This document shows, in pieces, positions 7,417 through 47,530 of a stretch of 64,000 nt of DNA. The notes beneath the pieces are model-generated. The model searched no databases, was not told where the DNA came from, and worked only from the letters and a program-made list of their open reading frames with translations. Source of the stretch: an uncultured Bacteroides sp. (lineage in GTDB: Bacteria; Bacteroidota; Bacteroidia; Bacteroidales; Bacteroidaceae). The translations under genes were made by a program, and so were the position numbers. Positions within the stretch are counted from its first letter, which is position 1. The number at the start of each line of letters is the position of its first letter. The stretch lies in the NCBI RefSeq assembly GCF_963677715.2, contig NZ_CAXXKL010000003.1, positions 720,044-784,043 on the forward strand, read 5' to 3'.

Positions 7417-7550
7417 CCCTCCAGAAGGCTTGTAAAGGGCATTGAAAGAAAACCAATTCCCTTTGCAAAGAAAACCGGTTGCCTTTACAAAGAAAACCGG
7501 TTTTCTTTGCAAAGGCAACCGGTAATCGGCGAAAAGAATACTAATTGTAA
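7417..7550 (-). repeat. Copy 1 of the intergenic 22-bp palindrome-array element
   Basis: CTTT(G/A)CAAAG cores at 7461, 7483 and 7505 (22-bp period). On the minus strand, TTACAATT lies upstream and AAGCCTTCTGGAGGG downstream. Confidence 0.85.
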
Positions 7551-7884
7551 AAAAACAGCACGTTTTTATCTTCCTTTTTTATCTACTGATCATTTTAATC
7601 AGTAAAGAAACCCTTTCTGCATAAATTATAATTTTGAATTCTTTTTGAATTTTCTCAATTCAAGCCTTATATTTATTCATTTCTCAGTTCTTTTATTTAT
7701 AATTTATGTATTCCAAATAAACTTTATTCGTCATTTATTAATATATTAATTTACATAAATAGCATATATAACACATATATAATTAAATATTTTATATCCA
7801 TATAATAAAATAAATCATTTTTTATAATAGCAACATATTAAACCATATAGTGTTAATATTAATAAATCACTAATATTATACACT

Positions 7885-8895
7885 ATGAAACAATTAATGA
7901 ACTCAATGGAGAACAAAACAGAACAAACAAGTACACTTCAGCATTTTGTACCTTTATTATCCGATGAACTAATCCTTTCCGGCAGACACGGGACGGCACG
8001 CGCATACACGAGTGCCTTTAAAAGATTAACCCGTTTCACGGGAAAAGCGGACATAACCTTCGCGGAGCTGACACCTGCTCTGATGAAACAGTTCGAACAA
8101 CATCTGTATGCAGCGGGGAGCAAGAGAAACTCCATATCCCTGTACATGCGCATGCTTCGTTCTATCTGCAACCAGGCAGTAAGAAGAGGCTTGGCAAACA
8201 TTCCGCATGAGCTGTTTCATGACGTATTCACCGGCACGGATAGTTGCGAAAAGCGGGCGATGTCACCTGCCGTCATCCGGTGTCTGCACCAAGCAGATCT
8301 GGAAAGCAAACCTTCCCTTAGCTTTGCCAGAGACATGTTTTTGCTCTCATTCTACCTAAGGGGTATCCCGTATGTAGATCTCATACATCTGAGAAAAAAA
8401 GACCTGAACAAGGGAGTATTGCGTTATCGCCGGAGCAAAACAAACCGTTTGGTTACGGTATGCGTGGAGGCCTGCGCAATGACTATCTTCCGTAAATATG
8501 CCTCTTCAGCAGGAAAATCACCCTATCTGCTTCCGGTCATCACACGTACCGGGCAAGAGGGGTACCGGCAATACCAAAGCGCCCTGCGATTGTACAATAA
8601 GCGGCTGCATTGCCTCTCGGAAATGCTGGAGCTCAAAGAAAATCTGACATCTTATGTGGCACGCCACTCCTGGGCCACAGCAGCTTATCGGCAAGGCATT
8701 CCGGTAGCCATCATCAGCGAATCATTGGGGCACGCTTCAGAGAAGATGACTTATCACTACTTAGCTTCGTTTGATAACCGCACTTTACGAAAAGCCAACC
8801 GAAAAGTGATTGCACTAATGATGACCGAAACAAATAAGCCCCAAACGCCTCCGAAACATTCGCCGTATCCATGGATAAACAAAGCGATAGGATAA
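7885..8895 (+). CDS. Tyrosine site-specific recombinase (Tsr-type invertase) with an N-terminal SAM-like domain
   Basis: Catalytic motifs SFYLRG, YRRSKT, SYVARHSWAT, LGH and TYHYL. It lies 130 bp from an inverted-repeat-flanked segment. Confidence 0.92.
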   Translation: MKQLMNSMENKTEQTSTLQHFVPLLSDELILSGRHGTARAYTSAFKRLTRFTGKADITFAELTPALMKQFEQHLYAAGSKRNSISLYMRMLRSICNQAVRRGLANIPHELFHDVFTGTDSCEKRAMSPAVIRCLHQADLESKPSLSFARDMFLLSFYLRGIPYVDLIHLRKKDLNKGVLRYRRSKTNRLVTVCVEACAMTIFRKYASSAGKSPYLLPVITRTGQEGYRQYQSALRLYNKRLHCLSEMLELKENLTSYVARHSWATAAYRQGIPVAIISESLGHASEKMTYHYLASFDNRTLRKANRKVIALMMTETNKPQTPPKHSPYPWINKAIG

Positions 8896-9024
8896 GAAAA
8901 CAAGGCGTTATTTTGTAGCGAAAGAGGTTCCACCCAGGAATCATCGTTTTGCTTTTCCGATAATAAACAGAGAAGAGAATAATGAATGAAAACACTTACT
9001 AGAAGGATTTACAGGGATTTTTAA

Positions 9025-9052
9025 TCGTTCCGTTACTTCACAGGTAACAGAA
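9025..9052 (+). repeat. Left inverted repeat (recombinase crossover site)
   Basis: TCGTTCCGTTACTTCACAGGTAACAGAA is the exact reverse complement of 9517-9544. It has an internal dyad GTTAC-N7-GTAAC. Confidence 0.93.
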
Positions 9053-9066
9053 TTTGTTTGAGACTG

Positions 9067-9098
9067 CAAATATTGAAATATTATATTAAACTACCAAA
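9067..9098 (-). promoter_or_regulatory. Bacteroides sigma-70-type promoter inside the invertible segment, facing away from the downstream genes (OFF)
   Basis: Minus strand TTTG-N20-AATATTTG followed by CA; one mismatch to the TTTG-N19-21-TAnnTTTG consensus. Confidence 0.7.
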
Positions 9099-9516
9099 TA
9101 AAATAAGTATTAATTAATTGATTTTGATAAATAACATTAATTAATAGTACTTATTTATTAGCATTAAACTGAAAACTTATGTATATATATGTACTTATAT
9201 AACAATAATACATGATATAAATATATTTAAACAAATAGAAATAAAGCATACACAAAATAATTTGTTTTTTTGAGAAATAGCCTTGCTTTCCAAAGATAAA
9301 TGATTAAAATATCTTGTTTGAGCATACATTGCATAACACTACCCAACAGCATTTTATCAACGCCATGTTTACATTCCTGTTTTTTTCGGCACACATGAGA
9401 ATGGCTGTTCAACACATTTTTATGTACTGAAACCTGTCTATACGCATTCGTCGCGACCATTTATGCTTTTAGCATTCTTCGGAATTGCATACCCGAATCA
9501 TTTCTTTGATTCGCGG

Positions 9517-9544
9517 TTCTGTTACCTGTGAAGTAACGGAACGA
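9517..9544 (-). repeat. Right inverted repeat (recombinase crossover site)
   Basis: TTCTGTTACCTGTGAAGTAACGGAACGA, ending 17 bp before the ATG at 9562. Confidence 0.93.
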
Positions 9545-9561
9545 CTAAAAAAGGAAAAAAG

Positions 9562-9969
9562 ATGTTGAGTCCCGAAATATTAAAAGCCGTAGCGCTGATT
9601 AAGGACATCCACTATGGAATCCCCTTATCGGAGAGTCGGCGTCGGCACTTGTTATCGGATGCCGATCGGCGTAAATTGCTGAACCGTTTTCGTTCGGCGG
9701 GGATGATACGGCTCAAAAACGAAATGGGCGACGTTCACCTCCCCGATTCCTACGAGCTGTGTTATCCCCTGCACGAGATCTCCCTCTGCGACATCATGGT
9801 GGCCACAGGTGGCGGCATCGCTTTCTCTATGGAGGATACTGAAGAAATTTATAACCGTTACGGCATGGCGGGCAACCGACTGGGGGTACTCAACCAGATG
9901 GCTTGTCGCTATCTATCGGAGATCCGGCTGACAGACCTACTGACAGCCGAGCCGGAGAGAGTGCATTAA
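9562..9969 (+). CDS. Hypothetical protein, probable Rrf2-like winged-helix DNA-binding protein
   Basis: RKLLNRFRSAGMIR...SYELCYPLHEISLCDIMVATGGGI resembles the Rrf2 pattern L.KAGLV...GY.LARP.EEISL.DI..A.EG (by eye). Confidence 0.55.
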   Translation: MLSPEILKAVALIKDIHYGIPLSESRRRHLLSDADRRKLLNRFRSAGMIRLKNEMGDVHLPDSYELCYPLHEISLCDIMVATGGGIAFSMEDTEEIYNRYGMAGNRLGVLNQMACRYLSEIRLTDLLTAEPERVH

Positions 9970-10002
9970 AGCACAAAATAAAAACTTCAGAGAAATAAAA
10001 TA

Positions 10003-10980
10003 ATGAAATTCATTAGTATAAATAATTTAGAAATGACAAGTATGAAAAAAATGATTTTAGTACCGTTGTCCATCCTGCTGCTGGCAGGTTGTTCTTCGGA
10101 CAACGAACCGCAAAGCGGTACAACAACAGATCCCGTTGAAATTAAGCTTACCGGAGGGATTCAAAGTATCACAGCTACAACACGTGGAGACGGAGTAATT
10201 TCCGGAACTTTACCAGCAAGCGAATTGAGCATTAGTCTTGCCAGAAACAATGCATTGAATATTGATGCAACGACTTACCAGGATTACAAAAATTTATCAT
10301 CTTCGCTTGCTGCAACTATTAGTACAGCAGGGGCAATTACCATTACACCTACAGAGTATTATCTAACTAATAGTTACTCTACAAAATTAGTTGGCTGGTA
10401 CCCAAGTACCGGTACATTTACAGAACAAACAGATGCCCCGGCAACGGTAACTTTCGCCCTTGACGGCAGCACCGATGTGATGCTCAGCAATGAAGTGGTT
10501 GGTTCAAAAAGCTCACCTTCTCCGGCCATGACCTTTGCTCACTTGCTCACACAAATACAGATAAAGGCGTATGCTGAAAGCCCCGCGGCTCAAACTCTCT
10601 GGGGAAATATAACAGCAGCGATAAAAATTAAAAGTCAGGAACCTACTTGCACAGTAACTTTACCTGCTGCAATCGACTTTTCAGGAACGGCAGCCGATGT
10701 GCCTATGTCGATAGTCCCCAATGCACTTTCAGCTGATTCCGAATCACCCACAGATTGTGGCTATGCAATGATTCCACCTGCAACTGCATCAACACAGCTT
10801 CAAATTGAGGTTACCACCGCAACAGGAGGAACCATTACACTGAACCTTCCGTTACAGGCTTATAACGCAAGCCATGCTTATACTATTACTTTATTGTTCA
10901 GATCGACAAATGTTACACCCTCCGCCTCTATGACAGACTGGACATCGGAAACTGTTGGAACTCCGGTAGAAGCACAATAA
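10003..10980 (+). CDS. Fimbrillin-family (type V pilin, BF2867/Mfa-like) lipoprotein
   Basis: Lipobox LLLAG-C, processing site TTR/G, DVMLS...F.HLLTQIQI motif, C-terminal SMTDW donor-strand-like tail. The true start may be a downstream ATG (MTSMKK). Confidence 0.8.
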   Translation: MKFISINNLEMTSMKKMILVPLSILLLAGCSSDNEPQSGTTTDPVEIKLTGGIQSITATTRGDGVISGTLPASELSISLARNNALNIDATTYQDYKNLSSSLAATISTAGAITITPTEYYLTNSYSTKLVGWYPSTGTFTEQTDAPATVTFALDGSTDVMLSNEVVGSKSSPSPAMTFAHLLTQIQIKAYAESPAAQTLWGNITAAIKIKSQEPTCTVTLPAAIDFSGTAADVPMSIVPNALSADSESPTDCGYAMIPPATASTQLQIEVTTATGGTITLNLPLQAYNASHAYTITLLFRSTNVTPSASMTDWTSETVGTPVEAQ

Positions 10981-11068
10981 TCAAACCCTTTGTTTGGCAC
11001 AGTAAAATGCGCATCATTGGTGCATGTCTATTGTGAATCACAATATAAATATGTTTGTTTTGTTTGTT

Positions 11069-11100
11069 GCCTTCGGTTAGAAATGACCGAAGGCTTTTTA
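11069..11100 (+). terminator. Intrinsic terminator after the pilin gene
   Basis: GCCTTCGGT-N8-ACCGAAGGC followed by TTTTT. Confidence 0.8.
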
Positions 11101-11229
11101 TTATGAACACAAAAAGCTACAAGTAAACATCTACAGAAATTCATTTTAATCTGCTAACAAATAAGGGCTTATCAAATAGCTATAAATGGGTATTTTTATG
11201 CTGAACAACATAAAAACAAGTCGTTTTTC

Positions 11230-11260
11230 GTTGCTATCTCACAAAAAGATAGTACTTTTG
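11230..11260 (+). promoter_or_regulatory. pflB promoter
   Basis: GTTG-N19-TACTTTTG followed by CA. Confidence 0.6.
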
Positions 11261-11298
11261 CACGCTCTAAGGAAAACTAACCCCTAACTAATTACATT

Positions 11299-13527
11299 AT
11301 GGAACCAATTAAGATCTTTAAGGACGGACTTTGGAGCAAAGAAATTAACGTCAAAGATTTCGTTAGCAATAACATCACTCCTTATAACGGTGATGCATCT
11401 TTCTTACAAGGCCCTACCGAAAGGACCAAGCATGTTTGGGACGTTTGTCTCAAAGCCATTGAAGAAGAAAGAACTAACAACGGACTCCGCTCACTGGATA
11501 ATAAAACGGTATCTACCATCACTTCTCACAAAGCAGGTTACATTGATAAAGAAAACGAACTGATCGTTGGTTTGCAGACCGACGAGCTGCTGAAACGTGC
11601 CATTAAACCTTTTGGAGGCATCAATGTGGTAGCCCGTGCCTGTCATGAAAATGGCGTGGAGGTAGATGAAAAGGTAAAAGAGATTTTCACTCATTACCGC
11701 AAAACACACAACGATGGTGTGTTTGATGTATATACAGAAGAAATTCGTTCGTTCCGCTCACTGGGATTCCTCACGGGATTGCCCGACAACTATGCCCGAG
11801 GGCGGGTAATCGGTGATTATCGCCGATTGGCTCTTTACGGTGTAGATCAGCTGATTAAAGCCAAACAAGAGGATTTACAGAACCTGACAGGCCCGATGAC
11901 AGAGGCTCGCATTCGCTTGCGCGAAGAGGTGGCTGAGCAAATCAAGGCGCTGAAAGATATTAAAGTGATGGGCGAGTATTACGGATTGGAACTCGGACGT
12001 CCGGCACATTCGGCCCAGGAGGCTGTTCAATGGGTATATATGGCTTATTTGGCTGCCGTAAAAGAGCAAGACGGAGCTGCCATGTCTCTGGGCAATGTGT
12101 CTTCGTTCTTAGATATTTATCTGGAATATGAACTAAGCAAAGGCCTCATCGACGAGTCATTGGCGCAGGAGTTGATTGATCAATTCATCATAAAACTTCG
12201 TATGGTGCGCCACCTACGCATGCAATCTTATAACGATATTTTTGCAGGAGATCCAACCTGGGTTACCGAGGCTATCGGCGGACGCTTTAACGACGGACGA
12301 CACAAGGTAACAAAAACCTCGTTCCGCTTCTTGCAAACGCTATATAACTTAGGGCCATCTCCCGAACCGAACTTAACTATATTATGGTCGCCGGCTTTGC
12401 CCGACGGTTTCAAGGCTTTTTGCACAAAGGTCTCTATCGATACTTCATCCATTCAATACGAAAACGACGATTTGATGCGTTCCGTTCGCCATTCCGATGA
12501 TTACGGAATTGCTTGTTGCGTATCATTTCAGGATATCGGCCGACAGATTCAATTCTTCGGAGCACGTGCCAACCTGGCCAAAGCCTTATTGCTTGCCATC
12601 AACGGCGGACGCTGCGAGAATACGGGTACGGTAATGGTTAAAGGCATTCCGGTACTGACAAGCGATAAGTTGAACTTCGACGAAGTAATGGCTAACTACA
12701 AAGTAGTGCTAAAGGAAATTGCGCGGGTATACAACGATGCAATGAACATCATTCACTACATGCACGATAAGTATTATTACGAAAAAGCACAGATGGCATT
12801 CGTCGACACCAATCCACGTATCAATCTAGCTTACGGTGCTGCCGGACTTTCCATTGCTGCCGACTCGCTATCGGCTATTAAATTTGCTAACGTTACGGCT
12901 CACCGCAATGAAATCGGTTTAACGGAATCATTCGATATTGACGGGGAATTTCCTTGTTATGGAAATGATGATGACCGTGTAGACGAACTGGCAGTAGGGT
13001 TAACACACCTGTTTAGCGAAGAGCTCAGCAAATTGCACATTTACAAGAATGCACGCCCCACACTGTCTATCCTTACCATTACCTCGAACGTGATGTATGG
13101 CAAAAAAACAGGTGCCACACCCGACGGGCGACTAAAAGGTGTTCCTTTTGCTCCGGGTGCCAACCCGATGCACGGACGTGATTCGAAAGGTGCCATTGCC
13201 TCGCTGACTTCTGTAGCAAAAATCAGGTATGAAGATGCACAAGATGGGGTAAGTAACACATTCTCTATCGTTCCGAAATCTCTCGGAGTTACGGAAGAAG
13301 ACCGTGTGGACAATCTTGTAGCAATGATGGACGGATACTTCAGCAAAGGTGCACACCACTTGAATGTGAATGTACTGAATCGCGAAATGCTGGAAGATGC
13401 CATGGAGCATCCGGAAAACTATCCGCAACTAACCATCCGTGTTTCGGGATATGCCGTGCATTTTGTGAGCTTGAGCCGCGAACATCAGCTAGAAGTTATT
13501 TCTCGCAGTTTTCACAGCAAAATGTAA
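11299..13527 (+). CDS. pflB: Formate C-acetyltransferase (pyruvate formate-lyase)
   Basis: GLPD.Y.RGR.IGDYRR, IACCVS active-site cysteines, glycyl-radical motif [10 protein letters not shown]. Confidence 0.97.
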
Positions 13528-13531
13528 GGAG

Positions 13532-14257
13532 ATGATAAAAGTTCATTCTTATGAATCTATGGGAACATTCGACGGGCCGGGTCTCCGGCTCGTCGTTTTC
13601 CTTCAGGGGTGCAACTTCCGTTGCCTATATTGTGCCAATCCCGACACCATTGCGGTTAATGGCGGAACAGCTACCGAACCCGAAGAAATAATACGTATGG
13701 CTCTTAGCCAAAAGGCTTTCTTTGGTAAAAAAGGAGGAATTACTTTTTCGGGGGGAGAACCAACACTGCAAGCCCAAACGTTAGTTCCGCTTTTTCGCCG
13801 ACTGAAAGAAGAAGGAATACACATCTGTCTGGATAGCAACGGAAGCATATGGAATGAGGATGTAAAAGAGTTATTGGAACTGACCGATTTGGTTTTACTC
13901 GACGTTAAGCAATTTAATGCCATGCGCCATCAATCGCTCACAGGACACAGCAACGAACAGACACTACGCACTGCCGCCTGGCTGGAAGAAAACAAGAGAC
14001 CTTTCTGGTTGCGATACGTGCTGGTACCGGGCTACAGTGACTTTGAGGAAGATATTATCGGTCTGGGCGAACAGCTGGGTACATACAAGATGATTCAGCG
14101 AATAGAGATATTACCTTATCACACACTCGGCGTACACAAATATGAAGCAATGAAACAAACATATCTGTTGGAAGGGGTAAAGGAAAACACGCCTGAACAA
14201 ACCGAGCATGCAGCCAATCTGTTCAAGCGTTACTTTCAAACGGTATATATCAACTAA
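13532..14257 (+). CDS. pflA: PFL-activating enzyme (radical SAM)
   Basis: GTFDGPG.RLVVFLQGC, CNFRCLYC, SGGEP; adjacent to pflB. Confidence 0.96.
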   Translation: MIKVHSYESMGTFDGPGLRLVVFLQGCNFRCLYCANPDTIAVNGGTATEPEEIIRMALSQKAFFGKKGGITFSGGEPTLQAQTLVPLFRRLKEEGIHICLDSNGSIWNEDVKELLELTDLVLLDVKQFNAMRHQSLTGHSNEQTLRTAAWLEENKRPFWLRYVLVPGYSDFEEDIIGLGEQLGTYKMIQRIEILPYHTLGVHKYEAMKQTYLLEGVKENTPEQTEHAANLFKRYFQTVYIN

Positions 14258-14283
14258 AAAACGATAAGAAAGTGCTTACTTAA

Positions 14284-15519
14284 TTAATAGGTAAAGCGAA
14301 TGCCGGCCTGAATATTCAGGTTAAACGGCGTTTCCTTTCGGATGGTTTGCACATCGGAACCATCATCAAAGAAATAAGCCACACCCGGTTCTATATAAAT
14401 GCCGATATGTTTAGTGGTATTTAATTGAGCACCTACTGCACCCGAAAGAGACCACTGTAAAGGTTTCACGGTTAGTTTCTCCGATCCCAGCTTTCCGTAA
14501 ACGGATTTTTCGACCAATCCTCCACCCGTAAGATAAAGAGTAAATCTGTCTTTATTCATAAAACTCCAGTTGGCCCGCAAAGGGATGCCAATGTAATGAA
14601 GCTTTTGCTCACTGGTTTGTGCACTTCCCTGAAACTTCACATCCGAAGAAAGTAGCGTGTACGTTACTCCCGTCTCAACAGAAAAGCGGTTGGACAGTTC
14701 CTTACGAACGGAAAGTCCGAATGTTATGGGCTGATGATGCTCTATGTTCGTTACATCATATTCTACATAAGGCAAACCTTCCTTAAACACAATCGTCTGA
14801 TTTTCAGGGATCGATACGAATCCTTCTGTAACATCGTCAAGTAAATATCCTGCTCCCTGAACCGTATTATTCTCGCCACCCCCATACGTGCCGGAAGCAT
14901 TCGTTACGGAAACTCCGACCGACCATCTACGGCTTTTACTTGAAGAGGATTTAACAGGTATATTCAGCTTATCTCTACTGGAAGGACGCCTGACTACTTG
15001 TCGTGAGCTATGCTCTTGAGACGTTACCTCTTCCTTCTCTGTAGGTTGGTTCCCATTTGTTTCATGCTGTTTTTCATCATCCGTCACTGAGTTTTCGTTT
15101 TCAGCAACCGCCTCAGCTACAAGCGCTTTTTCACCAATAGCAGTGGAATGTGTTGCCCGATTTGTTTTCTCCCGAGAAGTACCAGCCTGTGCTATACGCA
15201 TTGATTCCGTGGGTGAGGTAGTAGAGGCAGGCTCTTTTGTTTGGGGAAGTGCATCCGGCAATGTAGCAAGAGCCGGTACGTTTTGCTCCATTTCACGGAC
15301 AACCGGACTGTTAAGGAGATACAAGCTCACCCCTGCGGCAATCAGCAACATCACTCCCGCAGCAACCCACCAGCGATAAGGATAGATGTGCCGCTTGGGA
15401 ACGGAGGGCAACAGTGCTTTCTCCAATCGTTGCCAACCATCGGCAGGATAAGGTTCGGAATAATCTTCGAGAGACTCCCGCAACTTCTTAGTCCATATTT
15501 CTTTATCTTGTTTCACCAT
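14284..15519 (-). CDS. Dual-membrane-spanning anti-sigma factor (Dma-type)
   Basis: Short N-terminal domain, TM helix (WWVAAGVMLLIAAGVSLYLL), long Pro/Ser/Thr/Glu-rich tether and C-terminal beta-barrel ending NIQAGIRFTY. It lies directly downstream of an ECF gene. Confidence 0.75.
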   Translation of the reverse strand: MVKQDKEIWTKKLRESLEDYSEPYPADGWQRLEKALLPSVPKRHIYPYRWWVAAGVMLLIAAGVSLYLLNSPVVREMEQNVPALATLPDALPQTKEPASTTSPTESMRIAQAGTSREKTNRATHSTAIGEKALVAEAVAENENSVTDDEKQHETNGNQPTEKEEVTSQEHSSRQVVRRPSSRDKLNIPVKSSSSKSRRWSVGVSVTNASGTYGGGENNTVQGAGYLLDDVTEGFVSIPENQTIVFKEGLPYVEYDVTNIEHHQPITFGLSVRKELSNRFSVETGVTYTLLSSDVKFQGSAQTSEQKLHYIGIPLRANWSFMNKDRFTLYLTGGGLVEKSVYGKLGSEKLTVKPLQWSLSGAVGAQLNTTKHIGIYIEPGVAYFFDDGSDVQTIRKETPFNLNIQAGIRFTY

Positions 15520-15542
15520 CTATTTATTATGGTTTTACTAAC

Positions 15543-21986: not shown

Positions 21987-22020
21987 AAACCTGTTTCTAT
22001 TTTTAGACACACTCTTTTCA

Positions 22021-22146
22021 TTACAAATAATAACATTATCGCTGATCATAGGTTTTCTTTGTAAAGGCAACAGGTTTTCTTTGCAAAGAAAACCTGTTGC
22101 CTTTACAAAGAAAACCCGTTGCCTCCATTTCCCTTTTATAAGCCTT
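22021..22146 (+). repeat. Copy 2 of the 22-bp palindrome-array element
   Basis: Contains a perfect 66-bp palindrome at 22051-22116; TTACAAAT upstream and AAGCCTT at 22140. Confidence 0.88.
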
Positions 22147-22244
22147 TTGTACGCAGATTAAAATTAATTACAATTTATATTCCGTGGACTTATAAAACAG
22201 AGATAACGTTGAGCTAAATCTCATCAATCTAACTGCATAAAATA

Positions 22245-23471
22245 TCAATGACCTAATACATTCTCTCCGTCATTCAGCCGTTTGTAGCGGAGCAATGCCT
22301 CTATATAATAATAGTCTGCATAAATAATAGATGCATCAACTTCCGAATGCTCGGGCCAATGCCCCGTAGAATGAAGAAGAAACGAGGGCTTACTTTTCCC
22401 ACTCCGATAAGCCGAAGAATTCAAGCTTTCGAGCATTTTTGTTGCGGCATTTTTGTATTGAGCAGCTTTCTCTCCTTCCAAATAAGTAGAAAGTTCCAGC
22501 AGAGCCGACGCTACAATAGCCGCAGCCGAAGCATCCCGGGGAGCATTAGGAATATCAGGCGCGCTAAAATCCCAATAAGGTACACCATCTTTAGGTAAAT
22601 CATTCAAATAAACATCTGTGATTTTTTGTACAAAAACCAAATATTTAGGGTCATGCGTTTCGCGATAGCAAACCGTGTATCCATAAATAGCCCAAGCCTG
22701 TCCGCGCGACCACATACTATTATCAGCATATCCCTGATGGGTTACTCCTTTTATTAAATTTCCTGTAATGGTATCATATATGGCTACATGATACGAAGTA
22801 TAATCGGGTCTGAATTGACATTTCATCGTTTTATCGGCATGAGACACCGCAATATCATACAATCTTTGGCTACCTCCGTTTTTCGAGGCCCAGAAAAGCA
22901 ATTCCAGATTAATCATATTGTCCATAATGGTATTATAAGGCCAATTATGTAATTTAACCTCTCGCGGCCACGAAAGAATGGTGCCTACCACCGGATTGAA
23001 AAGTGTGGCTAACGTATCGGCTGTATTGAGTATGACTTGTTTATAAACCGGATTTTTCGTGAGCCTGTAAGCATTACCATAACTACAAAAGACAAGAAAT
23101 CCAAGATCATGATCGTAGGCTGGCGTATGAGCTAAAAAGGAAAGAGATGAAGTAAACTTTTCCGCTTCAGATTTAATTGCTGCACTGTGGGTGTATTCAT
23201 AGTCATACCACAATATACCGGGCCAAAAGCCCGATGTCCACTCTTCTTTTGTTGCCTTGTGGCACTCCCATGTTGTAAGACTATCCATTATATTCCGTGG
23301 CATCATGGTATAATCAATTACAGAATCACCCTTGAGTTCATTCAATGTTCGTCCCACCTGAACAGTGCAATAATCTAACGCTTTATCTGCATCTATTATT
23401 CCTACCGATCTTTGTGAACACCCGTAAAAGCACAAAAGTGTCAGACCCAATACTAATTTATTCATATCCAA
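22245..23471 (-). CDS. GH88 unsaturated glucuronyl hydrolase, lipoprotein
   Basis: WTSGFWPG, DHDLGF, IMDNMINLELL, WSRGQAW..YG, RDASAAAI; lipobox FYG-C. Confidence 0.92.
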   Translation of the reverse strand: MDMNKLVLGLTLLCFYGCSQRSVGIIDADKALDYCTVQVGRTLNELKGDSVIDYTMMPRNIMDSLTTWECHKATKEEWTSGFWPGILWYDYEYTHSAAIKSEAEKFTSSLSFLAHTPAYDHDLGFLVFCSYGNAYRLTKNPVYKQVILNTADTLATLFNPVVGTILSWPREVKLHNWPYNTIMDNMINLELLFWASKNGGSQRLYDIAVSHADKTMKCQFRPDYTSYHVAIYDTITGNLIKGVTHQGYADNSMWSRGQAWAIYGYTVCYRETHDPKYLVFVQKITDVYLNDLPKDGVPYWDFSAPDIPNAPRDASAAAIVASALLELSTYLEGEKAAQYKNAATKMLESLNSSAYRSGKSKPSFLLHSTGHWPEHSEVDASIIYADYYYIEALLRYKRLNDGENVLGH

Positions 23472-38700: not shown

Positions 38701-38778
38701 GGTAATCTTCATTAAATAGTTTCGATTACACAAATATACGAATGAAGCACCCAAAATACCTAATATGTTTTTCTATGG

Positions 38779-40646: not shown

Positions 40647-40658
40647 TAAAGTAAAAAC

Positions 40659-43600
40659 ATGGAAAAGAACAAAGTAAAAAAGAAAAACCTATGGGTCATT
40701 GTGCTGGCACTTTTACTATGCACTGCATATCCGCAAAACCAATTGAGCGCACAGATAGTCGGAAACAAATATCCAAAGGAGGGTCTCGTAGAACGTATTC
40801 AAAAGATCGTCAAAGCAAGCAAAAAGAATGTAGTATTCGATGCCATAATAATTAAAGACGTACAAGTTCCGGCCATAAATTCGCCCAAAAACCTATCCGT
40901 AGAGCAGGCACTGGCAAGAAGTTTAAGCTCTACTGAATTTACATACAAAATTCTGCCGGACGGATCTTATGTTATTATCAGCAGAGAGAAACAAACATCG
41001 TCTCAGCCCACCGTTATTTCTGTTCCGCTATCGGGAACGGTTAGCGAAGAAAACGGCGAACCGATACCCGGCGTTTCGGTTATCATCAAAGGGACAAATA
41101 AGGGTACTACAACCGACTTGAACGGAAAATATTCCTTAACCAACGTCTCCAACAATGCCGCACTCGTTTTTTCATTTATCGGTTACAACACACTAGAGCA
41201 AACAGTGACCGAAAACAGAAACCTGAATGCCACACTAACGGAAGCAACCAATGAGTTGAATGAAGTAGTAGTGATAGGATACGGAACTACCCAGAAGAAA
41301 GATCTCACAGGGGCCATTGCCTCCATTGACGGAGGTAAAATATCTCCGCGTCAAAACACGCAAATTATCAGTGCTCTGCAAGGAGCTATATCCGGAGTAA
41401 CCATAACACGTTCCAGTTCGGCACCGGGCACCGCCGGCAGCATTCGTGTAAGAGGCATCACCACCATCGGAAACAGTGACCCGCTTATTATTGTTGACGG
41501 AGTGCCCGTAAATAGCATGAACGATGTTAACCCCATGGATGTAGAGAACGTTACTGTGCTGAAAGACGCCGCATCCGCTTCTATCTACGGAGCAAGGGCA
41601 GCAGCGGGAGTCGTGCTGATTACCACCAAAAGAGGAGGTAAATCGGGGGTAAGTGTGGATTATAACTACAACTATTCGTTAGACATTCCCACCGAAATGC
41701 CCGATTATTATGATGCAACCAACTATATGAAAGCTCAAAACGAACTTGCATGGAATGATAATCCCGCCGGTGGAGAGTATGCCCTTCACGACAAAGATCT
41801 GATCGATAATTATAATGCACTTCATCAGGAAAATCCCGACTTATATCCCGATACAGACTGGGCAGCAATGTGCCTGAAGGCCAACGCAACACGCCAGAGC
41901 CATTTGCTGAGCATCACCTCCGGCGGACAGAAAACAAGAACCAAAGCCAGTTTTGGTTATGACGATGTGGAAGGGCTTTTTAAGAAAAATCTTTCGTGGA
42001 ATCGTGTCACCGCCCGCATCAACAACGACATCAAGTTATACAGCTGGCTGTCGGCAACCGTCGACATCAATTTAAAACTCACCGATGCTGTGAATCCGGC
42101 CTACAGTCCGTCGTCACAGATGCGCTATTCGGCTCCTATTTATTCTGCCGAATACTCCGACGGACGGGTTAGTGAAGGCAAAGCCGGAACAAACTGTTAC
42201 GGAAAAATGATGTACGGCGGCACAGACGAAACAAAAACGTATCAGGGAGGTGGAAAAATATCCATTGACATCACTCCGTTCGAAGGATTAAAAGTTTCGG
42301 GCGTCTTTGCTCCCAACTATACTTTCAGCAAAGACAAAGAGTTTCAGATAAGAGTTCCGTATACCAATTATGATAATCCCGATGTGGTGGCCGGATATTT
42401 GGAAGGAGCCGGGACAACAATGCTCACCGAAAACCGCAACGACAATTACTCACTCACCTCGCAGTTATTTGCCAATTACACAAAAAGCATTGCCCGCCAT
42501 AACTTTAACTTAATGGCCGGTTACGAAGACTATTATTACTATAATGAAAGTCTCATGGCCTCGAGAGATAAATACCAGCTGGACTATTATCCTTATCTGG
42601 ATGCCGGACCGGGAGAGTTAAAAGATAACTCCGGCACGGCTTACGAGAATGCGTATCATTCTTATTTTGCCCGTTTAATGTATAATTATAAAAACGCCTA
42701 TTACTTTCAGGCCAATGTGAGACGTGACGGATCATCGCGCTTCTACAAAGATTACCGCTGGGGTACATTCCCCTCATTCTCTGCCGGATGGATTATTTCC
42801 GAGGAGCGTTTTATGAAAGCCATACCTCTTATCTCATTTCTGAAACTACGTGGCAGTTGGGGGCAGCTGGGCAATGAGAGAATAGGTAACTATCCGTATC
42901 AAACATCCATTGAGTTCAACAATCCCGTGCTCTACGTAGGCAACACACCTACTTCCGCACAAGGAGCTTCCGCTTATCAGTACGCCATACGCGATATTTC
43001 ATGGGAAACAACGGAATCTACCGATTTTGGTTTCGATATGGATTTGTTTAGCAGTCGTTTACGCATCACAGCCGACTATTACCACAAAACCACCAAAGAC
43101 ATGTTATTGAAACTACAGATACCAAGCTATATGGGATATACCGACCCCGACCAGAATGCCGGAAGCATGAAAACCAAAGGCTGGGAAGTAGAGCTGGGCT
43201 GGAACGACCACATCGGAGAGTTGAACTATGGGCTGACCGTTAACCTGTCCGACTATAAGAGCATAATGGGTGATATGAAAGGCACGCAGGTATTGGGCAC
43301 CAACACCATTACCAAAGACGGCACATCCTACAACGAATGGTACGGATACGTAAGCGACGGCATCTTTCAATCGACCGAAGAGATAACGGCAGAAACGCCC
43401 GTAACCTCTTCGAGCGTCACGGCAGGAGATATTCGCTACAAAGACATCAGCGGACCGGATGGTGTGCCCGATGGTAAAATATCGGCCGACTACGACCGCG
43501 TTCCGCTAGGCGGATCACTTCCCCGCTACAACTACGGAGGAGCCGTTAACATGAGCTACAAAGGCATCGATTTTATGATGGCATTTCAGGGTGTGGGAAA

Positions 43601-44006
43601 ACAAAAATCGCTGATGACCGAAGAAATGGCTCGCCCACTAAGAGCTCAGTGGTATAACGTGCCCAGTTTCATTGCCGACAAATACTGGAGTAAAAACAAC
43701 ACCGCCGAGCAAAACGCCGCTGCCGAATATCCGAGATTCTCGGATACCAGCGGAAGTAATAACTACGCCATATCCGATTTCTGGTTGTTCAACGGTGCCT
43801 ACTTACGCATCAAAAACATTACTCTGGGATACACCCTTCCACAAGAATGGACATCAAAAGCCCTGATTCAGAAACTAAGACTATACGTCACATTATCAGA
43901 CTTTTTCACCTTCAGTCATTACCCCAAAGGATGGGATCCGGAGGTTAGTTCCACCGGCTATCCTATTACCAAGTCGGTTATGTTCGGAGCCTCGGTTAAG
44001 TTTTAG
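40659..44006 (+). CDS. SusC-like TonB-dependent transducer with an N-terminal STN extension
   Basis: Extra N-terminal domain (LSVEQAL...L....FTYKI) before the CarboxypepD-like domain; VLKDAASASIYGARAA.GV; ends FGASVKF. Confidence 0.95.
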   Translation: MEKNKVKKKNLWVIVLALLLCTAYPQNQLSAQIVGNKYPKEGLVERIQKIVKASKKNVVFDAIIIKDVQVPAINSPKNLSVEQALARSLSSTEFTYKILPDGSYVIISREKQTSSQPTVISVPLSGTVSEENGEPIPGVSVIIKGTNKGTTTDLNGKYSLTNVSNNAALVFSFIGYNTLEQTVTENRNLNATLTEATNELNEVVVIGYGTTQKKDLTGAIASIDGGKISPRQNTQIISALQGAISGVTITRSSSAPGTAGSIRVRGITTIGNSDPLIIVDGVPVNSMNDVNPMDVENVTVLKDAASASIYGARAAAGVVLITTKRGGKSGVSVDYNYNYSLDIPTEMPDYYDATNYMKAQNELAWNDNPAGGEYALHDKDLIDNYNALHQENPDLYPDTDWAAMCLKANATRQSHLLSITSGGQKTRTKASFGYDDVEGLFKKNLSWNRVTARINNDIKLYSWLSATVDINLKLTDAVNPAYSPSSQMRYSAPIYSAEYSDGRVSEGKAGTNCYGKMMYGGTDETKTYQGGGKISIDITPFEGLKVSGVFAPNYTFSKDKEFQIRVPYTNYDNPDVVAGYLEGAGTTMLTENRNDNYSLTSQLFANYTKSIARHNFNLMAGYEDYYYYNESLMASRDKYQLDYYPYLDAGPGELKDNSGTAYENAYHSYFARLMYNYKNAYYFQANVRRDGSSRFYKDYRWGTFPSFSAGWIISEERFMKAIPLISFLKLRGSWGQLGNERIGNYPYQTSIEFNNPVLYVGNTPTSAQGASAYQYAIRDISWETTESTDFGFDMDLFSSRLRITADYYHKTTKDMLLKLQIPSYMGYTDPDQNAGSMKTKGWEVELGWNDHIGELNYGLTVNLSDYKSIMGDMKGTQVLGTNTITKDGTSYNEWYGYVSDGIFQSTEEITAETPVTSSSVTAGDIRYKDISGPDGVPDGKISADYDRVPLGGSLPRYNYGGAVNMSYKGIDFMMAFQGVGKQKSLMTEEMARPLRAQWYNVPSFIADKYWSKNNTAEQNAAAEYPRFSDTSGSNNYAISDFWLFNGAYLRIKNITLGYTLPQEWTSKALIQKLRLYVTLSDFFTFSHYPKGWDPEVSSTGYPITKSVMFGASVKF

Positions 44007-44046
44007 TTAATCCTAGTATCATTAATCAACAAATAACTTATAAATT

Positions 44047-45786
44047 ATGAAGTTCAAACACTTATTCATATATGCTTTAGCAGGAATGGCACTCTGTTCG
44101 TGTCACGATCTGAATTTGCAACCGCTGTCAGAGGCCTCAGACGAGACCTGGTTTGCCGACAAAACGCAAGTAGAAATGAGCTTAAACACATTATACCTGC
44201 AACAGTTCTGGCCTTTATTCAAGAATTGCCTATACGGCACAAAAGACATCATGGCTATGGACGAAGCGACGGACGACTGGACCAACCGCAGTACCCTGAC
44301 CGTATTTACCAACGGTACCCTTAACGGCAATAACTCCACCGCCATTAAAGGAACCTGGGAAAACTCCTACAAAGCCATCAGCCGCTGCAACACAATACTG
44401 GCAAACATTGAACGCTCTAAAGACAACCTCACTACGGAGTTATACGAACGATACATGGGAGATGCCCGTTTTGTACGCGCCTGCCAATATTCAAGACTCA
44501 TTTCGCTCTATGGCGACGTTCCTTACTTTACGGAAGAAATAAGTCTGGAAGAAGCATACAAGATGGGACGCACGGATAAAGCAGAAGTATTGCAGCACAT
44601 CTACGATGATTTTGATTATGCTGCTCAGAAGCTGCCCGTTGCTTATGACGGCAACGAGATGAAACGAGCTACCCAAGGAGCCGCTTATGCCATGAAAGCC
44701 CGCATTGCACTTTTCTTTAAAGACTACGCAACGGCCCGCGATGCCGCTAAAAGCTGCATGGATCTGAAAATATATTCATTGTATCCCGACTTCGGCGAAT
44801 TGTTTCTGAGTAAAACAAAAAATTCAGTGGAGACCGTATTCGGCATACCCCGCTCCGTAGAGTACGGACAGATGCTTCAGGGAGGTGCCGTAACGGCCTA
44901 TCTGCCACGTACGGCAGGAGGCACAAGCACAGCCAATCCTTCATGGGATTTACTTTGCTCTTTTCTTTGTACGGACGGAAAGACCATAGACCAGTCGACC
45001 GTTTACAACCCTCAAAAACCTTTCGATAACAGAGACCCCAGATGCACGGCCACCATCGTTCCGTTCAACACCCGCCACTTGGGATTCAATTACACTCCGG
45101 AACCGGACTCAGCCAAGTGTTGGAGCTATAAGGAATCGGCCAAAATAACCAATAAAGACTCTAAAGGCGGAGATCAGTATGCCTCATACAACGGTCTGAT
45201 ACTAAAAAAAGGCATTGACGAAACATGGGTTAACAACGGCAGCTATACGGTAGATCCCGACAAGCTCATCATGCGCTATGCAGACGTATTGCTTATGTAT
45301 GCCGAAGCAAAAATAGAGTTGAATGACATAGACCAGAGTGTGCTCGATGCCATGAACACCGTGCGTGCACGAGCCTACAAAGCCGATATAAATTCGGGCA
45401 GTTACCCGCGGATAACGGAAACCGGACAAGCCGCACTGCGTCGGCTGCTACGCATAGAGCGCCGCATGGAGTTTGCTTTCGAAGGATGGCGTTACTGGGA
45501 CATCCTGCGCTGGCGCATAGCGGAAGATGTGATGAACAGACCCAATTACGGACTGCCTACCTCGGTGGCAAACTGCAAGAAGCTCATCACAAGTAAGGTA
45601 TGGTTCTTTTCGGGAACACCTCAAATTGACGAAAACGGCTCGCCCGACTTCTCTACCATGGCCGGCATAGCGCAGTATCGTGTGCTGAGCCAACGGGTGT
45701 TCGATGTAAAAAAACAATATCTATGGCCTATTCCTACGGATGATGTGTTGATTAATGCCAACCTGCAACAAAATCCGAATTATTAA
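44047..45786 (+). CDS. SusD/RagB-family lipoprotein
   Basis: Lipobox LCS-C, NRDPR, MRYADVLLMYAEA, ERRMEFAFEG.RYWD, YLWPIP...QNPNY. Confidence 0.95.
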   Translation: MKFKHLFIYALAGMALCSCHDLNLQPLSEASDETWFADKTQVEMSLNTLYLQQFWPLFKNCLYGTKDIMAMDEATDDWTNRSTLTVFTNGTLNGNNSTAIKGTWENSYKAISRCNTILANIERSKDNLTTELYERYMGDARFVRACQYSRLISLYGDVPYFTEEISLEEAYKMGRTDKAEVLQHIYDDFDYAAQKLPVAYDGNEMKRATQGAAYAMKARIALFFKDYATARDAAKSCMDLKIYSLYPDFGELFLSKTKNSVETVFGIPRSVEYGQMLQGGAVTAYLPRTAGGTSTANPSWDLLCSFLCTDGKTIDQSTVYNPQKPFDNRDPRCTATIVPFNTRHLGFNYTPEPDSAKCWSYKESAKITNKDSKGGDQYASYNGLILKKGIDETWVNNGSYTVDPDKLIMRYADVLLMYAEAKIELNDIDQSVLDAMNTVRARAYKADINSGSYPRITETGQAALRRLLRIERRMEFAFEGWRYWDILRWRIAEDVMNRPNYGLPTSVANCKKLITSKVWFFSGTPQIDENGSPDFSTMAGIAQYRVLSQRVFDVKKQYLWPIPTDDVLINANLQQNPNY

Positions 45787-45808
45787 TCCGTATTACAAGA
45801 AACCTCAA

Positions 45809-47314
45809 ATGAACAAAATAATAAATAAGAGTATTTGCTCTTTTCTATTCTTCTTGCTGCTAGTGACCGGCAACAACCCGTTGAAAGCACAAGCAACCAA
45901 TAATGACACAAAAGCCCCGCAACAATCTGTTGCGGGCCATGTGTGGTGCAACCATACAGGCATATCGGGAGTGGTAGTGACGGATGGTACCAACTTTACC
46001 GTAACCAACGGCAAAGGTTTCTACACGCTGCCGCCCAATCCGGCCTCTACGCATGTTTACATATCCTCGCCTGCCGGATACACTGTGCCGGTAGAAAACA
46101 GTGTGGCTATGTTTTGGGTAAAGTTAAACCGCGAAGCAAACACGAAGAACAACGTTGACTTTCGGTTAACGAAACTGGCGGACAAAGAGACGAATCACTA
46201 CTTCATAGCCGTTGGAGACCCGCAGGTGAGCAATAGAGCCGATCTCGAAAAGCTAAAACCCATTCTTGCAAACATAAAAGCAAAGATAGCCGGGTTACCT
46301 TCAAAAAATGTTCCGTTGCTCGTAGCAGGAGATATTGTGTTCGATACTCCCCAAATGCACACAATGAGTAAACAATACTTCTCAAAAGTAGAGCAACCGG
46401 TGTACTACTGCATCGGAAATCACGACCATGTGTACAGTAAAAAAGACTCGGCCACTTTAGACAACGACTTAACGGCAGATTCTGTTTACATCCGCCATTA
46501 CGGCCCCACACACTACTCTTTTAACCGCGGAGAGGTGCACTACGTTGTGCTGGACGATATCCGATACAAAGGAGGTCCTAAACCCGAATATACCACCGAA
46601 TTTGCTCAGGAACAATTAGATTGGTTAAAGAAAGACTTATCGTATGTGCCAAAAGAGAAGGCACTGGTTCTCCTGTTTCATGCTCCCAGCAAAACCCGCT
46701 TCAAAGCACGGATAGGTAACAATACCGAATTATACAAATTGTTGCAAGGTTATGCAAACGTGCAAACCATTTGTGGGCACACCCATTATAATTCCGTAGT
46801 GGCCGATGACGGATCGGGCATCACCGAGCATATTTTGGGAACAGCGTGCGGTAGCTTTTGGGAAAGCCCCGTGGGGCTGGACGGTTGCCCTCTGGGCTAC
46901 AAAGTGTTTGAGGTTAACGGAACGAAGTTTAAATGGAGATACATTGATTATACCGACAAGCAGAAGCTGTTTACCGTTTACAAACCCGGTGAACGCTCTC
47001 CTGCCCTCCCCCCTGCAGAAGAGCTGCTTGTTAACGTGTGGGACTGGGATCCGGCATGGGAAGTCGCCTATTCGGAAGACGGAGAAAAAACCTTTAAGCC
47101 CATGACGCGGATTAAATCGACCTATGACCCCACCGCCTATGAGTTCATCGGGCTAAAGGGAGAACGAAAAGTACCTAGTAGAAGTTGGCTGGGCTCCAGT
47201 GCTACCGACCATATTTTCTTCTGCGTTCCGTCTGCTGCGACAACAGAGATGGTTATCAAAGTAACCACCCGATTCGGAGAAGTCAGCACCCGGCACGTAG
47301 ACCTGCGCAAATAG
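45809..47314 (+). CDS. Secreted calcineurin-like metallophosphoesterase
   Basis: G..GV.VTDG N-terminal domain, GDPQ, GDIVFD, GNHD, FHAP, GHTH; signal peptide from ATG 45809. Confidence 0.88.
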   Translation: MNKIINKSICSFLFFLLLVTGNNPLKAQATNNDTKAPQQSVAGHVWCNHTGISGVVVTDGTNFTVTNGKGFYTLPPNPASTHVYISSPAGYTVPVENSVAMFWVKLNREANTKNNVDFRLTKLADKETNHYFIAVGDPQVSNRADLEKLKPILANIKAKIAGLPSKNVPLLVAGDIVFDTPQMHTMSKQYFSKVEQPVYYCIGNHDHVYSKKDSATLDNDLTADSVYIRHYGPTHYSFNRGEVHYVVLDDIRYKGGPKPEYTTEFAQEQLDWLKKDLSYVPKEKALVLLFHAPSKTRFKARIGNNTELYKLLQGYANVQTICGHTHYNSVVADDGSGITEHILGTACGSFWESPVGLDGCPLGYKVFEVNGTKFKWRYIDYTDKQKLFTVYKPGERSPALPPAEELLVNVWDWDPAWEVAYSEDGEKTFKPMTRIKSTYDPTAYEFIGLKGERKVPSRSWLGSSATDHIFFCVPSAATTEMVIKVTTRFGEVSTRHVDLRK

Positions 47315-47395
47315 ATTGTTTCCATGAGCACTATTTAACTTCAGAGCAAAGACAAATACCTGCTTTAGCCGTAAGTACCTAAATGATTTTTTTTG

Positions 47396-47530
47396 TTACA
47401 ATTTAAACAGGATTTGCAGCATTCAGGTTGCCTTTGCAAAGAAAGTTGGTTCCCTTTGCAAAGAAAACCAACTTTCTTTGCAAAGGGAACCAACTTTCTT
47501 TGTGCCCCGCCTCAGAAGCCTTCAGGAGGG
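47396..47530 (+). repeat. Copy 3 of the 22-bp palindrome-array element
   Basis: CTTTGCAAAG at 47432, 47454 and 47476; TTACAATT at 47396; AAGCCTTCAGGAGGG at 47516. Confidence 0.88.

Follow-up and report, generated by a model that had tools for sequence, protein, structure and literature searches.

Intergenic arrays of 22-bp palindromic units in a Bacteroides-type genome, a hairpin family that may stand in for terminators

Within the 64,000-nucleotide stretch of DNA analysed here (the window), we found three copies of an oriented palindromic repeat at the positions and on the strands that a first-pass annotation had proposed (Table 1). The tail of copy 1 ends 19 nt from the stop codon of a convergent gene encoding an MFS transporter, with no hairpin intervening, and a neighbouring tyrosine recombinase gene lies beyond its leader. 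Copy 2 has a small plus-strand ORF region on one side and a convergent GH88 gene on the other. Copy 3 occupies most of the 252-nt gap between convergent metallophosphatase and GH43 genes, and both of these copies lie between convergent genes, as had been stated. Near-matches to CTTT[GA][CT]AAAG number 12 in the window where 3.1 are expected, a count reached in none of 100 shuffles.

Table 1. Positions in the window of the three repeat copies, their parts and the neighbouring genes.
Feature	Position	Strand	Basis or remark
Copy 1, whole element	7398-7556	-	nhmmer 143 bits, full length
Copy 1, leader	7556-7521	-	half-site parsing
Copy 1, array	7520-7444	-	half-site parsing
Copy 1, tail	7443-7398	-	half-site parsing
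Copy 1, cores	7461-7470, 7483-7492, 7505-7514	-	22-bp period
Copy 2, whole element	22012-22174	+	nhmmer 117 bits
Copy 2, array	22051-22127	+
Copy 2, core starts	22057, 22079, 22101	+
Copy 2, perfect palindrome	22051-22116		33/33 Watson-Crick pairs
Copy 3, whole element	47386-47549	+	nhmmer 114 bits
Copy 3, array	47426-47502	+
Copy 3, core starts	47432, 47454, 47476	+
MFS transporter gene	5949-7379		convergent with copy 1
Tyrosine recombinase gene	7885-8895	+	Pfam Phage_int_SAM_5 + Phage_integrase; 329 nt past copy 1 leader end
GH88 gene	22245-23471		convergent
Metallophosphatase gene	45755-47314		convergent with GH43 gene
GH43 gene	47567-48556		convergent with metallophosphatase gene

The extents first given for these copies were right in location but too short. 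Each element is ~160-165 nt long and consists, in a fixed orientation, of a T-rich leader, an array of 11-nt half-sites, and a tail. The leader comprises a T-run, TTTACAA, and then about 22 variable nucleotides containing TTTTATAGG; the earlier observation of exactly 22 nt between TTACAAWT and the array holds for all three window copies. In every copy of the family the array has exactly seven half-sites in alternating orientation, of a U-rich type (GGTTYYCTTTG) and its A-rich complement, and the core CTTTGCAAAG recurs every 22 bp. The period had been read exactly, but the count of three units was too low, as the array comprises 3.5. The tail carries AACCCCTCT..AAGGC.., followed by a second conserved motif, TAAATAATTACA, and terminates near AATAATTACA; AAGCCTT lies 23, 23 and 24 nt past the last full unit in the three window copies, as described. 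We also recovered both of the reported palindromes, the perfect 66-nt palindrome of copy 2 and the 50-nt palindrome of copy 1 with one mismatched pair (96% self-match over 50). As RNA, the copy 1 array has a predicted minimum free energy (MFE) of -39.7 kcal/mol in sense and -35.6 kcal/mol in antisense.

A search for further copies with nhmmer in the 3.9-Mb, 99.8%-complete Bacteroides-type genome yielded 18 copies, all of them full-length, with neither fragments nor truncated versions among them, and a homologous family of nine copies is present in a congener (G090). Further copies, whose absence would have refuted the first-pass reading, thus exist both here and in a relative. The repeat is non-coding, and all 18 copies are strictly intergenic with a common layout, which agrees with its initial description as an oriented intergenic repeat family. 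We found no solitary units in the genome outside these elements, and a regulator operator is therefore unlikely. Neither terminal inverted repeats (longest inverted end-to-end match 5.9 nt within the same copy, 6.1 nt between copies) nor copy-specific target-site duplications (direct match 6.0 nt versus 6.2 nt across copies) were detected, which tells against the proposed membership of a MITE family; the TTACA common to copy ends is a family motif. Searches of phages, plasmids and IMG/VR gave no match that would indicate a phage or plasmid origin, and a metagenome scan gave no family members. No exact or near-identical proteins from a second strain of the same species are on record, the best homologue having 84% amino-acid identity.

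At 14 of the 18 copies, one or more of the neighbouring genes has its 3' end next to the element. Five are located in convergent, nine in tandem and four in divergent spacers, which fits a random intergenic expectation, and element orientation is random relative to genes and to replication. The four copies between divergent gene starts occupy sites where no terminator is needed, an observation that speaks against a terminator role. At three convergent gene pairs (C3:672970, 839267 and 866151) the element takes up the entire intergenic space. The location at 'PUL edges' remarked on for the window copies is incidental, since the genes next to the family's members range over dnaK, enolase, mfd, hsp20, rubrerythrin and transporters, among others.

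At about ten gene ends the element begins 0-31 nt past the stop codon and there is no other hairpin. When more than 60 nt separate stop codon and element, there is usually a canonical terminator independent of the element. The convergent spacer between ygiQ and mfd is 58-76 nt long in at least five congeners and contains a terminator made of an A-run, a hairpin and a T-run; in this genome it is 197 nt long and made up of the element. Similarly, at the end of the GH43 operon the closest metagenomic relatives have an ordinary bidirectional terminator, AAAGAAGGATAA..TTATCCTTCTTTTTTT, where this genome has only the element. Because the canonical terminators of relatives are missing at several sites here, the element probably does their job, and it appears to stand in for ordinary terminators at several gene ends.

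The explanation we favour, with a confidence that is about evenly balanced, is a dispersed hairpin array resembling BIME, BrickBuilt and Correia elements that substitutes for terminators where transcription units end. The hairpin module would lodge at such ends and would be transcribed as a 3' UTR by read-through from either side, and its long hairpin may serve the adjacent genes as their bidirectional terminator or 3'-end barrier, or replace it. Strand-symmetric processes at the DNA level, namely templated quasi-palindrome correction and exchange between copies, would hold the arms within one copy complementary. They would also make the half-site alphabet uniform within each species, producing concerted evolution, and a putative protein reading the phased 11-nt half-sites may reinforce these processes.

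Some of the same sites bear on an unlikely alternative, a selfish and now inactive mobile repeat that spread without inverted ends or target duplication, inserted next to or into terminators and has no host function, its palindromy and uniformity arising incidentally through template switching and gene conversion. Orthologous sites are indeed filled in one species and empty in another, both at the ygiQ/mfd spacer and at G090 copy L083, for which the orthologous site in this genome (C3:34136-34371) is empty. The spacer distribution matches the random expectation, and a look-alike array in Prevotella has three units in one assembly and four in another at a single locus. The clustering of copies (13 of 18 within 710 kb, P ~5e-5) would fit local hopping. 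However, a dead element should decay evenly, whereas in these old copies the cores, along with several motifs of leader and tail, stay nearly invariant while the sequence between them is near random. The lack of any fragment or truncated copy among the 18, and the missing canonical terminators of relatives, likewise argue against a repeat without host function.

The arrays fold on either strand into one or two long hairpins with energies from -16 to -49 kcal/mol. An exact inverted pair of spacers occurs in 10 of 18 copies where 1.9 are expected, and ten was reached in none of 5000 shuffles, in line with the earlier remark that the half-site mix varies by copy yet remains foldable. The MFE of the arrays has a z of -4.2 against spacers shuffled among copies. 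Moreover, the private spacer types I and J are found solely as inverse pairs inside one copy, and these changes are therefore compensatory. The position of the palindrome centre shifts from copy to copy, and we found neither a consensus for leader-tail pairing nor an RNAalifold consensus structure outside the array; within the array this consensus covers only a part. Sense-minus-antisense MFE averages +0.6 kcal/mol, and 11 of the 18 copies are more stable in sense.

A U-rich segment directly follows the full hairpin in about 5 of 18 copies in sense and about 1 of 18 in antisense, with strong hairpins on both strands. The small number of hairpins directly followed by a U-rich half-site is a point against the terminator role, and the position of the elements at gene ends is a point for it. 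Terminators predicted inside the array are an artefact of the predictor's 20-pair stem maximum.

A further alternative is a family of independent small-RNA genes, in which the leader would supply the promoter and the tail the terminator of a structured body. The oriented layout, the T-rich TTTACAA leader at a fixed distance, the GC hairpin followed by U-rich sequence in about 7 of 18 tails, and the skew of hairpin transition mismatches (25:11 towards A.C on the sense strand, equivalent to G.U on the antisense strand) are all consistent with such genes. We nevertheless regard them as very improbable: the -7 box (TAnnTTTG) of the canonical Bacteroides promoter is absent from the element on either strand, the palindrome centre is not conserved, the consensus structure is partial, and the arrays have no strand bias, so that the autonomous structured-RNA gene considered in the first-pass annotation is not supported. 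The tail hairpin is weak as a conserved structure, with a mean z of only -0.7. Rfam, searched at both gathering and E-value thresholds, returned no match at the gathering score, and its only sub-threshold hits are to miRNA precursors and are caused by the hairpin. The FopS/GibS RNAs differ in architecture, being built from a single-stranded 5' seed and a terminator (PMC11697453), and they have canonical promoters of a type that is absent from the element. The IS-associated BTnc020 family of B. thetaiotaomicron also has another architecture and canonical promoters.

Leader plus tail identity between copies is 50%, with a maximum of 70%, and the variable leader segment reaches 34% against a background of 28%. 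In contrast, the arrays are 72% identical and their cores nearly invariant. Since the flanks are only ~50% identical between copies, the copies are, as judged from their sequences, old, and no pair is young enough to reveal ongoing movement. The nine homologous copies in G090 use a half-site alphabet disjoint from that of this genome, and at the one copy that is orthologous in both species, upstream of a gene encoding Lin1244_N, the alphabets are disjoint too. A homologous family with another alphabet and an orthologous member points to arrays that evolve in concert within species, which in turn implies that they are subject to some machinery or process of exchange. A terminator role leaves unexplained the fixed number of half-sites, the exact 22-bp phasing and the leader and tail motifs, as well as the species-specific alphabet and the concentration of 13 copies in 710 kb.

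Another alternative is a docking array, in which the half-sites are duplex or cruciform sites for a putative species-specific protein, either a dimeric DNA-binding or a hairpin-recognising one. Its logic would be centromere-, iteron- or REP/RAYT-like, the protein co-evolving with its sites and organising or marking one chromosomal region; because 22 bp is two helical turns, all docking sites would face the same side. We consider this doubtful. The exact period and fixed site number in all 18 copies are in its favour, as are invariant cores within decayed flanks, the disjoint alphabets, the absence of strand bias, placement independent of orientation, and a 22-bp period that recurs across many Bacteroides and Prevotella genomes in arrays otherwise unrelated to one another. 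So is the clustering of copies, which in G090 places all nine within 540 kb. Minimum spacing between copies gives a weak hint (P = 0.045 and 0.03), and even spacing as such has weak support. On the other hand, a duplex-binding protein would need no complementarity between arms of different units, and solitary units are absent elsewhere in the genome. The cluster is also one-sided relative to the terminus inferred from skew, which makes a Ter-macrodomain-like distribution unlikely.

In addition, no candidate protein for docking was found among those we checked. The Y1/RAYT transposase (Y1_Tnp, PF01797) has no match in this genome, while control genomes give matches, and the presence of RAYT/IS200 in look-alike genomes is inconsistent. 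Lin1244_N, a replication-type gene, is abutted by only one of 18 copies, and as a binding partner it was rejected, being common in array-less genomes and absent from array-bearing Prevotella-type genomes. A paralogue of the copy 1 recombinase on contig C1 (66% identical) has another element 204 nt upstream with the same geometry. Recombinase paralogues adjoin an element in two of three cases here, one of eight in G090 and none of ~25 elsewhere; at the G090 site the array is not part of the repeated recombinase segment but stands ~260 nt away from it. A tyrosine recombinase as partner is thus unsupported, its subfamily mostly lacking arrays. Phased repeats beside a binding-protein gene, as in iterons or partition centromeres, were not found.

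A broader proposal, which we also judge unlikely, is that the arrays constitute a widespread and so far undescribed Bacteroidaceae system in which a putative co-evolving trans-acting protein recognises, copies and homogenises them. The protein would either be a nuclease or recombinase specific for hairpins or bind DNA as a dimer, and the arrays here would mark one chromosomal region of ~0.7 Mb with a minimum spacing of ~15-30 kb. If true, the system would form a RAYT-independent counterpart to the REPIN/RAYT partnership, or a chromosome-organising family of sites.

To our knowledge, Bacteroides genomes are usually regarded as lacking REP-like repeats, and the sole described relative in Bacteroidales is BrickBuilt of Porphyromonas gingivalis. 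REP, BIME and REPIN elements are extragenic, alternating palindromic units with conserved inter-unit motifs that form hairpins and make no target duplication. They are uniform within a genome, differ between species and often lie at gene 3' ends; a RAYT gene is typically flanked by REPs, copies usually exceed 100, and a GTAG-like head stands by the palindrome. The family described here shares the alternating extragenic palindromes, the conserved inter-unit motifs, the hairpins, the lack of target duplication, the uniformity within a genome, the difference between species and the frequent location at gene 3' ends, which is the part of the suggested REP/BIME likeness that stands. It differs in its 18 copies where those elements have hundreds, in half-sites that are AT-rich 11-mers instead of GC-rich 20-40-mers, and in a fixed unit number. 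With no Y1 or RAYT gene in the genome, and no GTAG-like head tetranucleotide in the per-column consensus of the family, membership of REP/RAYT is not supported.

Correia (CREE) and BOX/ERIC repeats are likewise small, dispersed non-coding modules that form stable hairpins; they are co-transcribed with their neighbours and can serve as terminators or as sites of RNA processing. Inverted ends and a TA duplication characterise Correia elements, and 45-nt boxB units the BOX elements; the present element is identical to neither group in sequence or architecture. BrickBuilt is always intergenic, has ~19 copies per genome and is species-restricted (Klein et al. 2015, PMC4596501). Its units are 23-nt direct repeats, 1 to 22.8 per copy; its leader and tail end in small inverted repeats, many of the copies are incomplete, and promoter activity has been reported (PMC4596501). 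The likeness extends to the order Bacteroidales, intergenic location, a leader, spacer-less tandem 22-23-nt units and a tail, species restriction and a similar copy number. Compared by published architecture, however, the units here are 22-bp palindromes fixed at 3.5, without inverted ends, partial copies or a recognisable promoter.

A literature search on the core word and on Bacteroides REP and MITE repeats yielded nothing relevant. Judged by Rfam and the literature, this 160-base family of palindrome arrays is undescribed, which accords with its not having been recognised at first as a known Bacteroides repeat. Such arrays are easily confused with sRNAs, operators or iterons in annotation, and they are relevant for predicting transcript ends near polysaccharide-utilisation loci. 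Hairpins of this kind can lead to fold-back artefacts and contig breaks in assembly. A dedicated protein, if one exists, would represent a new repeat-protein partnership.

With this family, its congener homologue and similar arrays in Prevotella (Prevotella sp. CAG:1092 and MAGs), 22-bp-phased palindromic arrays are recurrent in Bacteroidaceae intergenic DNA. The Prevotella-type arrays share the period and CTTKSSMAAG-type palindromic cores, some literally CTTTGCAAAG, and are intergenic and oriented with about 3.5 units. They differ in their arms (GATA..TATC) and ACGT junction, and some are direct repeats with variable unit number. We liken them to the present family by period and cores, as look-alikes. 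Their flanks differ as well, with an A-run on one side and a T-run opposite, which is the geometry of a bidirectional terminator.

Scanning the whole genome (3.91 Mb in four contigs, 40% G+C; the window spans C3:720044-784043) for phased cores and with an nhmmer profile extended the three window copies of the repeat to a family of 18. The element is a genuine dispersed repeat of BIME/BrickBuilt type, specific to its lineage and not previously described. All 18 copies are full length (approximately 160–165 nt, 65–143 bits), and these whole-genome searches revealed neither fragments of the element nor solitary units outside the 18 copies. When the copies are anchored on the array, each has a leader in which a T-run and TTTACAA, starting 31 nt ahead of it, precede a variable stretch that ends in a TTTTATAGG-like sequence. 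The array consists of exactly seven 11-nt half-sites of alternating orientation, the U-rich GGTTYYCTTTG and its complement, and is followed by a tail (AACCCCTCT..AAGGC..) that ends near TAAATAATTACA in all copies.

Reading and aligning the window copies bore out the layout described in the first-pass annotation, namely TTACAAWT, exactly 22 nt, the units, and AAGCCTT 23–24 nt past the last full unit. The perfect 66-nt palindrome of copy 2 and the 50-nt palindrome of copy 1, with one mismatched pair, are also present as described. The unit core in these copies is CTTT[GA][CT]AAAG at a 22-bp period; allowing up to one mismatch, it occurs 12 times in the window (3.1 expected), and nine of these lie inside the three copies.

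Locations of the features discussed, in this Bacteroides genome and in two congeners (G090 and G010)
Feature	Genome	Location
Repeat copy 1	this genome	window 7398-7556 (-)
Repeat copy 2	this genome	window 22012-22174 (+)
Repeat copy 3	this genome	window 47386-47549 (+)
Repeat copy orthologous to a G090 copy	this genome	C3:815395
Example of an empty site, occupied in G090	this genome	C3:34136-34371
Tyrosine recombinase (Phage_int_SAM_5 + Phage_integrase)	this genome	window 7885-8895 (+)
Tyrosine recombinase (same domains)	this genome	C1:258763-259731
Tyrosine recombinase (same domains)	this genome	C3:484925-485833
Tyrosine recombinase	G090	C1:1885953-1886867
Inverted repeat ATCGTTCCGTTACTTCACAGGTAACAGAA	this genome	window 9025-9052
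Inverted repeat TTCTGTTACCTGTGAAGTAACGGAACGA	this genome	window 9517-9544
Spacer from SusD stop to repeat copy	this genome	C1:258286-258393
ygiQ/mfd spacer (L152)	G010	C82:6850-7220

About 24 types of 12-nt spacer separate the cores, with both orientations in use. Ten of the 18 copies contain an exact inverted spacer pair, versus 1.9 expected, and none of 5000 shuffles in which spacers were exchanged among copies within position reached ten; the folding energy of the arrays is 4.2 SD better than that of such shuffles. Types I and J are confined to inverse pairs inside one copy, and thus substitutions have been mirrored. The longest palindrome is centred differently from copy to copy (on the middle core in eight, the third core in five, a unit junction in four), and the two strands fold equally well (mean difference 0.6 kcal/mol). 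Transition mismatches give a weak signal, a 25:11 skew to A.C in the sense orientation. The inverted spacer pairs, the shifting centre and the lack of strand preference therefore point to strand-symmetric maintenance of 'any long hairpin' rather than of a defined RNA fold. The palindromy and uniformity of the arrays would be upheld at the DNA level.

Identity between copies is only 50% in leader plus tail (maximum 70%) and 34% in the variable part of the leader, compared with 28% in unrelated flanks, which excludes a recent burst. The arrays are 72% identical and their cores nearly invariant despite the diverged flanks, and so the motifs are kept through either selection or homogenisation.

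Membership in REP/RAYT finds no support, PF01797 (Y1/RAYT) being absent from this 99.8%-complete genome. For a MITE, the two ends have in common just TTACA, a family motif that is directly oriented, and end-to-end matches, direct or inverted, are no longer within a copy than across copies; therefore there is neither target duplication nor terminal inverted repeats. The structured RNA proposal found no match in Rfam at gathering score, only sub-threshold miRNA-hairpin matches, and the RNAalifold consensus was confined to a portion of the array. REP/RAYT, MITE, BrickBuilt proper, known RNA families and iterons were each rejected on failed defining tests. Neither strand of the element contains a TAnnTTTG -7 box, and searches of phage, plasmid and IMG/VR collections gave nothing similar. 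The FopS and GibS sRNAs of Bacteroides consist of a single-stranded seed and a terminator, and the FopS consensus is deposited in Rfam (PMC11697453); identity with them was rejected given the different architecture and the lack of an Rfam match.

All 18 copies are intergenic, five between convergent genes, nine in tandem spacers and four between divergent genes; this split matches the random intergenic expectation, and orientation is unbiased. The placement of copies 2 and 3 at PUL edges is incidental; the neighbours of the 18 copies are diverse, and those identified by Pfam include PUL genes, SusD, recombinases, hsp20, rubrerythrin and transporters. Others, on inspection of their translations only, we take to be dnaK, enolase, mfd, typA, PBP1A and SusC. 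At approximately ten gene ends the stop codon is followed after 0–31 nt by the element, without a further hairpin; wider gaps usually hold a canonical terminator as well. The convergent arrangement of ygiQ and mfd is the ancestral state in the genus; their spacer is 58–76 nt with an A-run/hairpin/T-run terminator in at least five congeners, and in this genome it is 197 nt and consists of the element. Among metagenomic relatives, the nearest ones end the GH43 operon (beside copy 3) in an ordinary bidirectional terminator. The best-supported role is that of a putative hairpin module at transcript ends that would stand in for bidirectional terminators; that the family is purely selfish is a serious alternative. 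Against a simple terminator, only about five of the 18 full hairpins in the sense orientation run straight into a U-rich segment, and terminator-scan matches inside the array are a product of the scan's 20-pair stem limit.

The spacer between the SusD stop and a repeat copy holds a separate near-perfect 19-bp-stem hairpin (AAAGAGAAAGAGAGCG..CGCTCTCTTTCTCTTT; spacer folding energy -38.7 kcal/mol), probably the gene's own terminator. The ygiQ/mfd spacer of G010 is filled with five tandem TTGACAA words and then CCATT[CA]TC repeats, with neither a hairpin terminator nor a 22-bp array.

The two-core pattern was absent from 40 relatives searched. Among 185,579 species representatives, chance matches aside, only Prevotella sp. 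CAG:1092 and a set of five Bacteroidaceae/Bacteroidales MAGs have it; their arrays resemble the element in period and core type but differ in arms and flanks. The Prevotella look-alikes have an A-run on one flank and a T-run on the other. A model built from the sequences of all 18 copies identified a diverged homologous family in G090 (nine copies, all inside 540 kb), whose leader and tail motifs are similar and whose period is identical. The half-site alphabets of the two genomes are disjoint. At an orthologous site, where both copies direct their leader side towards the start of a Lin1244_N gene, each carries the alphabet of its own species; either the arrays evolve in concert or they co-evolve with a trans factor. 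Recognition of the arrays by a dedicated protein is a serious alternative to the transcript-end module. Further G090 sites are empty in this genome. The collections contain no other strains of this species (a flanking protein has its best homologue at 84% identity), and a metagenome scan found no member of the repeat family.

Thirteen of the 18 copies lie within C3:380-1090 kb (P about 5e-5), on one replichore and 230–940 kb from the skew maximum. The smallest gaps between copies, 14.6 kb here (P = 0.045) and 26.8 kb in G090 (P = 0.03), are above usual random placement, and five consecutive G090 gaps span 27–37 kb; this is a weak, post-hoc hint of minimum or regular spacing. The element lies 204–329 nt upstream of two of the three tyrosine recombinase paralogues of this genome (66% identical), leader side towards the recombinase and in identical geometry, as for one of eight in G090. 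Six of the G090 recombinases lie in nearly identical stretches of at least 2.6 kb; this segment is thus itself multi-copy, and the array lies outside it. No array precedes approximately 25 recombinase homologues in other species.

Just 3' of the window recombinase gene, the inverted repeats ATCGTTCCGTTACTTCACAGGTAACAGAA and TTCTGTTACCTGTGAAGTAACGGAACGA enclose an AT-rich segment. Neither resembles the repeat family. Their form, GTTAC-N7-GTAAC, is that of a tyrosine-recombinase core site, which agrees with the segment being a candidate invertible promoter.

Among the look-alikes, GATACTTTGCAAAGTAATACGT units number two in Prevotella sp. CAG:1092 scf490 (L021) and three at the same locus in metagenome contig OIXA01001621.1 (L051), preceding a CTTGSGCAAG unit in both, which makes the unit number polymorphic in the Prevotella look-alike family. 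The 2147-bp scf113 (L006) of the former genome is a perfect fold-back around its array; the hairpin repeat probably seeded this as an assembly artefact. Further intergenic arrays with a 22-bp period, but of unrelated unit sequence, occur in many congeners, such as GCTGTCTTGGCAAAGTTAGCAA, CAAAGGTGGCACCTTTCC and GTTTACACCGCATATAGATGGA (L073-L082, L110, L113), and the 22-bp period thus recurs across array families.
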